Origin: a bacterium
GTDB lineage: Bacteria > Cyanobacteriota > Sericytochromatia > S15B-MN24 > UBA4093
Direction: 5' to 3'
Assembly: GCA_017744355.1 (NCBI GenBank)
Contig: JAGIBK010000005.1
Location: 260,790 to 324,789, forward strand
DNA: 64,000 bases
Shown here: piece by piece, positions 17,248 to 19,510 of the stretch
Layout: the number at the start of each line of letters is the position of its first letter
Position numbering within the stretch: the first letter of the stretch is position 1
The notes under the pieces: generated by a model
What the model saw: the letters and a program-made list of their open reading frames with translations, nothing else
The model's database searches: none
Told to the model about the DNA's origin: nothing
Translations under genes and position numbers: made by a program

Positions 17248-17976
17248 CTACTTCCGGTCGGTCTTACTCGGGGGCTCTGGCGTCAATTGTCCCATCCCCG
17301 GGCGATCGCAGCAAGTTTCGGGCTTCGGCGCCCCCTCGGCCTGCCGGGTGGGGTTGGCCAGATGCTCGTGCGCCAGGCGGCGCAGGGCGATGATCGCCGG
17401 CTCGAAGAGCATGGTGCCGAGCACCACCTCCTCGATGGCCCGGGTGGCGTCGCTCCTGACGGCCTCGGCGGTGTAGGCGACCTCTTGGCTGGCGAGCGCC
17501 TCGACCGCCTGGGCATAGGGGAGGAGGGTCTCGACGGGCAGATTGGGGCTCAGCAAGCGGCGCATGGCCAGAAGGGCATCCACCAGGTCTTGCTTTGCGG
17601 CAGCCTCTGGGCGGGTCTGCCAGCCGAAGCCCGCAAGCAGGCGATCCACATCGGCCTCCGCCGAGAGGCGCGCCGCATCGGCCGGCTCGATCGCAGCCTC
17701 TCGCTCGCTCAGGGCATCCACGGCCACGCCGAGTACGTCCCAGACGGGAGCGTCGGGCTGGTCCACCAGCGCGGTGACCTTGCGGATGCCGCCGATCGAG
17801 AGATGGCCCGCCTCCTTGAGCGCGTGGATGAGCGCGAGACGCCGCAGGTGCTCGTCGGTGTAGGTGGCCTGGTTCGGACCGGTGGGAATGCCGGGCATCA
17901 GCACCCCCTCGCGCAGGTAGAACTTGAGGGTGGCGAGGGGCACGCCTGAGCGCTGGCTGAGTTCGGAGATTTTCAT
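17248..17976 (-). CDS. MerR-family transcriptional regulator
   Basis: N-terminal MerR HTH (MKISELSQRSGVPLATLKFYLREGVL); the C-terminal half is helical with no recognisable B12 or metal-binding motif. Confidence 0.85.
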   Translation of the reverse strand: MKISELSQRSGVPLATLKFYLREGVLMPGIPTGPNQATYTDEHLRRLALIHALKEAGHLSIGGIRKVTALVDQPDAPVWDVLGVAVDALSEREAAIEPADAARLSAEADVDRLLAGFGWQTRPEAAAKQDLVDALLAMRRLLSPNLPVETLLPYAQAVEALASQEVAYTAEAVRSDATRAIEEVVLGTMLFEPAIIALRRLAHEHLANPTRQAEGAPKPETCCDRPGMGQLTPEPPSKTDRK

Positions 17977-17996
17977 GGCGGGTCTTTCCAAGGCGC

Positions 17997-18059
17997 TTGA
18001 CAGTCTAATCAGATAGTCTTACTATCCGCCAATGAGATGGATAGTGAGACTATCTGATT
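17997..18059 (+). promoter_or_regulatory. promoter TTGACA-N17-TACTAT overlapping a 20-bp inverted-repeat operator
   Basis: TTGACA at 17997-18002. Left arm AATCAGATAGTCTTACTATC (18007-18026) and right arm GATAGTGAGACTATCTGATT (18040-18059) give 19/20 complementarity with a 13-bp spacer; the RBS AGGAGG lies downstream. Confidence 0.55.
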
Positions 18060-18085
18060 CTAGCACATCGAGAGGAGGGCTTCCC

Positions 18086-19510
18086 ATGCAGACCCCTGCA
18101 GTTGCAACGCGCCTGAGCTCAAGGGCTTTCGAGGACCTGTGGGAAGAGGTGACGGATGTTTCCTTGCCCATCACGGGGACGTTGCCCGAAGGCCTGGCCG
18201 GGACCCTGTACAGGGTCGTGCCGACGGCCTTCGACTGGCCGAAGGGGAGCTTCCAGCACTGGTTCGACGGCCACGGTCAGCTCCATGCGATCGCACTCGA
18301 CGGCCGAGGCGGCGCGCGCTACCGCAGCCGCTTCGTTCAGACCGAGGCCCTTGCGCGATCGCAAGCGACAGATCGCCCGGTGGGATGCTTCGGGACCCGG
18401 CCCTCGGGAATGCTGGGCGGGGTGCTCGGCAACGGCTACATGGGCACGGCCAATACCAACGCCCTGCGCCTGGGCGATCGCCTCTACGCCCTGCAAGAGG
18501 GGAGCCGCCCTGTCGCGCTCGACCCCGTCACCCTCGAGACCTTGGGCAGTGAGGATCTGGGGGCCCTCACGGGGGGCGAGGGCTATAGCGCCCATCCCCA
18601 CTGGGACCCCGAGCGCCGCGAGGCGGTCGCGGCCTGCCTCCAGTTCGGCCGCGACCCCAAGGTCATCGTGACGAGCCATGGGGCCGCGGGCAGTCTCGGC
18701 CGCCGCTTCGAGCTGGCGCTTCCCTACATGCCAAGCCTGGTTCACGACTTCGGCCTCTCGGAGCGCCACATCGTCGTCCCGCTCTTCCCACACGTGTTCA
18801 ACCCCTTCAAGTTCCTTGCGGGGATGGCATCCCCCGCCGAGGCCGCGCGCTGGGAGCCCGAGCGGGGCACTTGCGTCCTGGTGACCGATCGCGACGGCGG
18901 GAACCTCCGGCGCTACGAACTGCCTGCCATGTATTCCTTCCATGTGCTCAACTGCTTCGACGAGCAGGACACGGTGGTGCTGGATCTGGTCGCGTTTTCG
19001 AGCGGGGCGATCCTGGATGCGGTCGGTGGGGTCCGGACCCGCGGCTTCTCGGCCTTCGAAGCGGGGCGCCTCGAGCGCCTGCGCCTCTACCGCGACGGCC
19101 GGGTCGCGGCCGAGACGCTGCATCCGGGGACCTTCGAGTTCCCGCGGATCGATCCCAGGCGCCAGGGGAAGGCGCACCGCTATGGCTATTTCGTCTCGAG
19201 CCGCCAGGATGCACCCGAGACTCAGGGGGAGCCGTTCGGAGCGGTTGCGCGCCACGACGCGAAGACCGGCCGGCTGGAGCGCTGGTGCGCGCCTGCGGGG
19301 CATCTGGTCGGCGAGGCGGTCCCTGTCGTCAAGGAGGGGAGGGCGCAAGAAGAGGCCGTCTGGCTCCTGTCGATGGTCTACGACCCCGAGGCCCATCGCA
19401 GTCGCCTGGTGGTGCTCGACGGCGAGGACTTGGCCGGGGGCCCGGTCGCCGAGGCCCTCTTGCCGAACCATCTGCCGCTTGGCTTCCACGGCAACTTTCA
19501 CCGGAGCTGA
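18086..19510 (+). CDS. carotenoid cleavage oxygenase family protein (RPE65/CCO)
   Basis: CCO-like conserved histidine-containing blocks (HWFDGHGQLH, HDFGLSERH, FHVLNCFDE, HGNFHRS). Start set at ATG 18086 after AGGAGG. Confidence 0.9.
   Translation: MQTPAVATRLSSRAFEDLWEEVTDVSLPITGTLPEGLAGTLYRVVPTAFDWPKGSFQHWFDGHGQLHAIALDGRGGARYRSRFVQTEALARSQATDRPVGCFGTRPSGMLGGVLGNGYMGTANTNALRLGDRLYALQEGSRPVALDPVTLETLGSEDLGALTGGEGYSAHPHWDPERREAVAACLQFGRDPKVIVTSHGAAGSLGRRFELALPYMPSLVHDFGLSERHIVVPLFPHVFNPFKFLAGMASPAEAARWEPERGTCVLVTDRDGGNLRRYELPAMYSFHVLNCFDEQDTVVLDLVAFSSGAILDAVGGVRTRGFSAFEAGRLERLRLYRDGRVAAETLHPGTFEFPRIDPRRQGKAHRYGYFVSSRQDAPETQGEPFGAVARHDAKTGRLERWCAPAGHLVGEAVPVVKEGRAQEEAVWLLSMVYDPEAHRSRLVVLDGEDLAGGPVAEALLPNHLPLGFHGNFHRS

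Follow-up and report, generated by a model that had tools for sequence, protein, structure and literature searches.

A predicted tandem operator of SCO5550-type MerR regulators at the promoter of a carotenoid-oxygenase-family gene in a Sericytochromatia-like bacterium

Organization of the divergent locus

We analyzed a 64-kb stretch of bacterial DNA on contig JAGIBK010000005.1 (the whole stretch is hereafter called the window), in which a MerR-family regulator gene and a carotenoid-cleavage-oxygenase-family gene diverge from a shared intergenic region that carries a long inverted repeat. The regulator gene (17248-17976, minus strand) encodes a MerR protein of 242 amino acids, which we assign to the SCO5550 type, with a PF13411 match at residues 1-68 (E = 1.5e-18), and the oxygenase gene (18086-19510, plus strand) encodes a protein of 474 amino acids with the RPE65 fold (PF03055, E = 7e-108). 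An earlier note on this DNA, made from the letters and their open reading frames (ORFs) alone, had given both genes these identities and had put the gap between them at 109 bp; the Pfam matches bear out the identities, and the gap spans 17977-18085, as described. We set the start of the MerR gene at the ATG at 17976 rather than at the TTG at 17991, because MKISELS opens all homologues in the alignment. The gap is AT-rich for this genome, with a GC content of 48-49% compared with ~68-70% in the flanks, and towards its right end it contains the Shine-Dalgarno region of the oxygenase gene, GAGAGGAGGG (18070-18079, plus strand), of which GAGGAGG or GGAGG is kept in related loci.

A promoter scan placed the putative oxygenase promoter within the gap. 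The -35 hexamer TTGACA (17997-18002, plus strand) and the -10 hexamer TACTAT (18020-18025, plus strand) are separated by 17 nt, which is the optimal spacer, and they match the sigma-70 consensus at 10 of 12 positions. It was the sole sigma-70-like match between 17200 and 19700, where 0.1 would be expected, and transcription of the oxygenase gene is predicted to start near 18031-18032. The same scan confirmed what the earlier note had pointed out, namely that the inverted repeat overlaps this TTGACA-N17-TACTAT promoter.

The inverted repeat has arms of 21 nt (18007-18027 and 18039-18059) that are 95% complementary and lie 11 nt apart. It is the same feature that had been described as a 20-bp repeat with a 13-bp gap and 19/20 complementarity, and in this respect the description stands; what does not stand is the long repeat as the functional unit. 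Each arm is itself a palindrome, GATAGT-N3-ACTATC, located at 18012-18026 (GATAGTCTTACTATC) and 18040-18054 (GATAGTGAGACTATC), and the pair was also reported as a direct repeat with 28-nt spacing. Because one palindrome in two tandem copies necessarily mimics a longer inverted repeat, we regard the latter as a by-product, and the functional unit appears to be two palindromes of 15-17 bp, hereafter called box 1 (aGATAGTcttACTATCc, 18011-18027) and box 2 (gGATAGTgagACTATCt, 18039-18055). Box 1 extends from ~-20 to -6 of the oxygenase promoter, with the -10 hexamer inside its right half-site, and box 2 extends from ~+9 to +23 of the predicted oxygenase transcript and covers the position at which merR transcription is predicted to begin (~18049, minus strand). 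On that strand, box 2 is directly preceded by TGCTAGAAT (18064-18056), a candidate extended -10 element of the merR promoter.

The two boxes stand out from the rest of the window, which holds three inverted repeats of at least 20 nt, the other two being GC-rich, terminator-like hairpins. When the window was searched with the consensus of the regulator family, TGGATAGTNNNACTATCCA, at no more than three mismatches, only the two boxes matched, and two matches were obtained in none of 100 shuffles. The earlier note had raised the possibility of a generic repeat present elsewhere in the genome; no dispersed copy was found in the 64 kb beyond the two adjacent boxes.

Conservation of the MerR–oxygenase pair

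A MerR gene divergent from an oxygenase gene of the same clade was found at nine distinct loci: the window, L084, L001, L002, L003, L085, L164, L168 and L171, with L165 and L166 merged into L164, and L172 into L171, as duplicates. The pairs outside the window came from metagenome and Logan contigs, not from species-representative genomes. Across the nine loci the identity of MerR falls from 98% to 51-53% (52-53% in the search table and 51% in the alignment), and that of the oxygenase from 86% to 55%. The nine pairs occupy at least two different genomic contexts; L001 has the neighbours seen in the window, which are genes for a dicarboxylate symporter, an HD phosphohydrolase and DnaG, and at L002, L003, L085 and L164 the pair is set among glycosyltransferase genes. 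These differing neighbourhoods imply that the pair has been kept together through rearrangement.

At all nine loci the promoter reads TTGAC[AGT]-17-TACTAT, the spacer and the TACTAT being invariant, and box 1 is found at the same place, ~-20 to -6, so that its right half-site coincides with the -10 hexamer. A second box is also present in all nine, at a centre spacing of 16, 24, 28, 29 or 30 bp. The earlier picture of a single operator with a fixed spacer is therefore not supported, since the spacing among orthologous loci ranges over 16-30 bp and the outer complementarity between AATCA and TGATT, which stretches the repeat to 20-21 nt, is not conserved. Even in L084 the left flank is AAATG, despite a MerR fragment 98% identical and an oxygenase 86% identical to those of the window. 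At seven loci box 2 is followed, after a further 16 bp, by a third box, which is exact in one case (L001, 3907-3921), has one mismatch in one and two mismatches in five; equivalents of the L001 box are found in L002, L003, L085, L164 and L171, and the third box appears to have been lost in the window and L084.

As for the merR promoter, TGnTAnnnT or TGnCAnnnT occurs on the minus strand just outside the distal box at seven of the nine loci. Another arrangement, TTGGCG-19-TAGACT around box 1 on the minus strand, was considered as a merR promoter of the classical MerR type and was rejected; judged by eye, it is not conserved even in L084.

Operator boxes across the regulator family

We then collected loci of the wider regulator family, 80 from species-representative genomes (the best 80 of at least 600 pattern hits in GTDB), mostly of Actinomycetota and Chloroflexota, and 80 from metagenomes. 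The box proved to be strikingly concentrated in front of the regulator genes: exact GATAG-N5-CTATC occurred 75 times in the 24.1 kb upstream of MerR genes (150 nt per gene, 163 loci) and only once in the remaining 937 kb. A box upstream of the MerR homologue was found in 59 of the 163 loci when an exact match was required and in 112 when one mismatch was allowed. At the latter threshold, 108 of 158 distinct upstream regions had at least one box and 71 had two boxes, while 36 family loci had a single box. Positions that had not been part of the search pattern were enriched as well (T at 6, A at 10, G at 0, C at 16, T at -1 and A at 17), and the operator consensus of the family is TGGATAGT-N3-ACTATCCA. 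Boxes are preferentially spaced by 22-24 bp, as in 51 cases, or by 16 bp, as in 15; two boxes at one of these spacings are the norm among L004-L163.

The genes that accompany the regulator differ widely. PF13826 'monooxygenase af470-like' proteins were found at 22 loci and ABC-transporter ATPases at eight, mostly in metagenome-assembled genomes (MAGs) of Chloroflexota, and further divergent partners include a HIT-domain protein and several families without a Pfam match. Among L004-L163, the small PF13826 (DUF4188) gene is the commonest partner, accompanied in Chloroflexota by the ABC-transporter ATPase. No oxygenase gene lay within 4 kb of the MerR gene in the best 80 of the at least 600 genome hits, and among the 160 collected loci an oxygenase neighbour was seen only in the metagenome loci L084 and L085. 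Of the MerR homologues with no more than 47% identity, those inspected (L169 and Dehalococcoidia-type loci) face ABC-transporter genes, and the 83%-identical SCO5550 orthologue at L043 has a divergent PF13826 partner with a one-mismatch box in between.

Because the upstream enrichment holds even though most loci have unrelated partners, the box appears to be the operator of the SCO5550-type MerR family and not of the oxygenase. The earlier proposal of an operator dedicated to the oxygenase thus has to be replaced by a family-wide one. The other half of that proposal, that the repeat is a MerR binding site, is very probably correct, given that the palindrome lies directly upstream of MerR homologues and almost nowhere else in their loci.

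The regulator and the enzyme

In the MerR protein, a winged helix-turn-helix (HTH) domain at residues 1-68 is followed by a helical C-terminal domain (~75-215), and the sequence ends in a tail of low model confidence that contains Cys222-Cys223. By phmmer it matches SCO5550 of Streptomyces coelicolor (PDB 2DG6) over residues 1-205 (E = 1.9e-28). When its AlphaFold model (pLDDT confidence score 87.9) was compared with solved structures, 2DG6 was the sole full-length fold match (Foldseek template-modelling (TM) score 0.65/0.74, 36% identity), and other MerR structures matched only the N-terminal domain of the model. The C-terminal domain accordingly matches 2DG6 by both approaches, and the protein appears to be an SCO5550-type MerR, homologous over its full length. 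In the monomer model we see several helices of 10-30 residues and no long dimerization helix or coiled coil. A search of MerR against Pfam returned no B12-binding family at E ≤ 0.01, and a regular-expression search found neither D.H..G nor E.H..G in it, in agreement with the earlier note, in which the B12-binding DxHxxG motif was said to be missing.

When the C-terminal domain was searched alone, only 305 cluster representatives were obtained among 1.84 billion proteins. In most full-length hits, which are ~200-250 amino acids long, the domain is located at ~75-220, and the shorter hits look fragmentary; the regulator family therefore seems to be small and of a single architecture. The C-terminal tail of the window protein, ETCCDRPGMGQ (17248-17320, residues ~219-242), is common to the 76%-identical homologue P0002 and is predicted to be disordered (pLDDT 56-68), and the homologues P0004, P0007 and P0008 also have Cys near the C-terminus. 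The Cys222-Cys223 tail may be a redox- or metal-sensing appendage.

The oxygenase has a full-length RPE65 domain, with PF03055 aligned over positions 2-468 of 469. Its best solved relative is the Synechocystis apocarotenoid-15,15'-oxygenase (ACO, also Diox1; 2BIW), with E = 2e-58 and 201 bits by phmmer, compared with 107-131 bits for the NOV1 and LSD stilbene oxygenases. The four-histidine iron site is intact, since H170, H220, H286 and H468 align with H183, H238, H304 and H484 of ACO, and the second-shell glutamates Glu150, Glu370 and Glu426 of ACO are also aligned. The match to ACO is distant, and the window enzyme belongs to a small, isolated clade: identity falls from 55% to 46%, and then beyond the clade to no more than 39%. 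Its scores are far below every NCBIfam equivalog cut-off, the nearest being 201 bits against a curated 675. The nearest oxygenase outside the clade (39% identity, from a Dormibacteraeota MAG; L167, 4399-6452) is divergent from a PadR regulator, not from a MerR, so the same enzyme family seems to have been put there under a different regulator. The L167 oxygenase lies beside reductase, dehydrogenase and acyltransferase genes.

Among the ~40 window ORFs examined, no carotenoid-biosynthesis or rhodopsin genes were found, and the apocarotenoid-forming role that the earlier note had given to the enzyme is therefore unproven. The RpoD encoded in the window shares 74-84% identity with proteins labelled Candidatus Sericytochromatia, and 96% with that of one MAG labelled Pantanalinema, and the host is probably a non-photosynthetic relative of cyanobacteria.

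Discussion

Our analysis suggests that what looked like one long inverted repeat between the MerR and oxygenase genes is a tandem pair of SCO5550-type operators. The statistical linkage between the box and the regulator gene makes it very likely that MerR binds both boxes, and because box 1 keeps its place on the oxygenase promoter in all nine loci, MerR probably controls the oxygenase. As to how it does so, we favour with moderate confidence a scheme in which MerR binds the operator pair and represses the oxygenase promoter, and probably its own gene as well, until a ligand appears. MerR would occupy each box, presumably as a dimer. Occupancy of box 1 would cover the -10 hexamer and keep the oxygenase promoter off without the signal, while MerR on box 2 would act as a block further downstream, early in the transcribed part of the oxygenase gene, and, at the predicted merR start that this box also covers, would bring about negative autoregulation. 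A small molecule at the helical C-terminal domain would then release or re-shape MerR and allow transcription.

The geometry of the promoter is consistent with such repression. Because 10 of the 12 consensus positions are matched and the 17-nt spacer is optimal, the oxygenase promoter should fire unaided. With its centre at ~-13, the operator covers the -10 element and is not placed mid-way in a long spacer. With a spacer of this length, an operator on the -10 element and no predicted coiled coil, the classical MerR mechanism, in which the DNA is twisted to activate the promoter, would be expected to fail here. There are, on the other hand, points that weigh against repression as we propose it. 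The title of Hayashi et al. 2013 (PMID 23618855, cited in PMC5045206), the only experimental paper on the family, names SCO5550 a transcriptional activator of sco5551. The spacing of the boxes shows no consistent helical phasing, so that cooperative binding cannot be inferred. In addition, we assumed that promoters in Sericytochromatia follow the standard sigma-70 rules.

It may be that the same MerR acts at the same boxes as an effector-dependent activator of the oxygenase promoter, which we consider rather unlikely. The title just mentioned speaks for activation, as do the MerR-type winged HTH of the regulator, the tendency of MerR proteins to stay bound to DNA with and without ligand, and the classical behaviour of MerR, CueR, SoxR and BmrR. 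As in the window system, these canonical regulators are winged HTH proteins with a palindrome in the promoter of a neighbouring or divergently oriented gene, but their operator lies in the middle of a 19-20-bp spacer, and they dimerize through a long antiparallel coiled coil. In the window the spacer is 17 nt, as in all nine loci, and is flanked by near-consensus hexamers; the operator centre falls on the -10 hexamer; the model has several short helices in place of a long coiled coil; and canonical MerR structures resemble its N-terminal domain only. Moreover, PMC5045206 states that the dimer architecture of SCO5550 differs. Repression remains our preferred explanation for these reasons.

Other explanations of the repeat fare less well. 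If it acted as a leader-RNA hairpin on termination, stability or translation, both arms would have to be on one transcript, where they would fold well (-32.9 kcal/mol, z = -8.1), but the left arm is upstream of the predicted oxygenase start and the predicted 5' untranslated region is no more stably folded than its shuffled versions (z = +1.3). Where boxes are paired, their centre triplets lack covariation (0.31 complementary, compared with 0.27±0.03 for shuffled partners), the spacing varies over 16-30 bp and the outer arm is not conserved, 36 family loci have only a single box, and matches in Rfam are far below threshold and of a generic miRNA-hairpin type, making a role in RNA very improbable. 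Still less credible is a light- or B12-dependent regulator of carotenoid metabolism like CarH or LitR, with which the earlier note had compared the window protein. CarH, CarA and LitR are B12-dependent photoreceptors that repress carotenoid-related genes from operators overlapping the promoter elements. The window protein has in common with them a MerR-type N-terminal DNA-binding domain, and it adjoins a carotenoid-oxygenase-family gene; however, it contains no B12-binding domain or D/ExHxxG motif, its C-terminal fold is unrelated to B12-binding domains and homologous to SCO5550, its putative target encodes a cleavage oxygenase and has no crt genes in its vicinity, and most family members adjoin non-carotenoid genes. 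The comparison is thus reduced to the shared DNA-binding fold. Finally, the palindromic nature of the repeat could by itself suggest a chance feature or a generic dispersed element, such as a repetitive extragenic palindrome (REP) or one like a miniature inverted-repeat transposable element (MITE), but the repeat is unique in the window and recurs at the orthologous position in many genomes, and we give this explanation practically no weight.

SCO5550 itself is the closest known system. Like the window protein, it combines a MerR winged HTH with a C-terminal helical domain for which there is no Pfam model, and its gene is divergent from its target; the box of its orthologue at L043 is GATAG-N5-CTATC with one mismatch. 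The differences concern mainly what is regulated and in which direction. The partner at L043, presumably the counterpart of sco5551, is a small PF13826 protein, whereas the target in the window is a 474-amino-acid RPE65-family oxygenase; SCO5550 is an activator according to the title of the report on it, whereas the geometry of the window promoter points to repression; the host is an actinomycete in one case and a Sericytochromatia-like bacterium in the other; and the Cys-Cys tail is found on the window protein. A literature search for MerR together with carotenoid cleavage or oxygenase yielded plant and fungal papers only, and one for sco5551 or the shape of the SCO5550 dimer yielded nothing beyond PMC5045206.

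The kind of mechanism proposed here is ordinary, a local one-component regulator acting on a divergent promoter, and involves no new principle of regulation. What is new is an SCO5550-type regulator–operator system with a new partner gene, the oxygenase: in a Sericytochromatia-like lineage, one clade of these regulators seems to have taken on the control of a carotenoid-oxygenase-type enzyme. The analysis also provides a testable operator consensus, most often found in two copies, for a small MerR subfamily that has a solved structure and a little-studied C-terminal domain with ~300 cluster representatives. This should help genome annotation, and one regulator, one promoter and one enzyme form a clean system for finding the ligand of the effector domain. 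Because that domain has no known ligand and the pair is kept across nine loci, it is conceivable, as a speculation that we consider improbable, that in this clade MerR serves specifically to sense the substrate or product of the oxygenase, for example a retinal- or apocarotenal-like aldehyde. If so, it would be a bacterial apocarotenoid-responsive transcription factor, and non-photosynthetic Sericytochromatia would have an inducible apocarotenoid pathway.

Other features of the window

Downstream of the oxygenase gene, a perfect 22-nt GC-rich inverted repeat with a 1-nt loop (19519-19563) lies between this gene and the convergent gene at 19580-20941. It folds as RNA at -62.1 kcal/mol (z = -8.3), lacks a T-run and was not called by the terminator scan; it is likely a bidirectional terminator. 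With such a hairpin after its stop codon, the oxygenase gene would be monocistronic in the window; at L001, a DUF3995 gene follows the oxygenase gene. The convergent gene (19580-20941, minus strand) encodes a 453-amino-acid product that has no Pfam match and begins with a signal-peptide-like sequence; it may be an outer-membrane protein.

Farther away, eight co-directional, tightly packed ORFs of 647, 500, 517, 215, 564, 605, 506 and 315 amino acids occupy 27111-38955 on the plus strand. Their GC content at the third codon position is 0.84-0.91 and none of them has a Pfam match at E ≤ 1e-4, so that the region looks like an operon without an assignable function. A perfect 23-nt inverted repeat with a 4-nt loop is present at 3683-3732; its left arm lies over the first codons of the ORF at 1862-3694 (minus strand), and the rest is in the gap before the ORF at 3745-4086 (minus strand). 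On the other side of the MerR gene, an HD-domain dGTPase-like gene, dnaG and rpoD are found in a row (13244-17242, minus strand), an arrangement resembling the macromolecular-synthesis operon.

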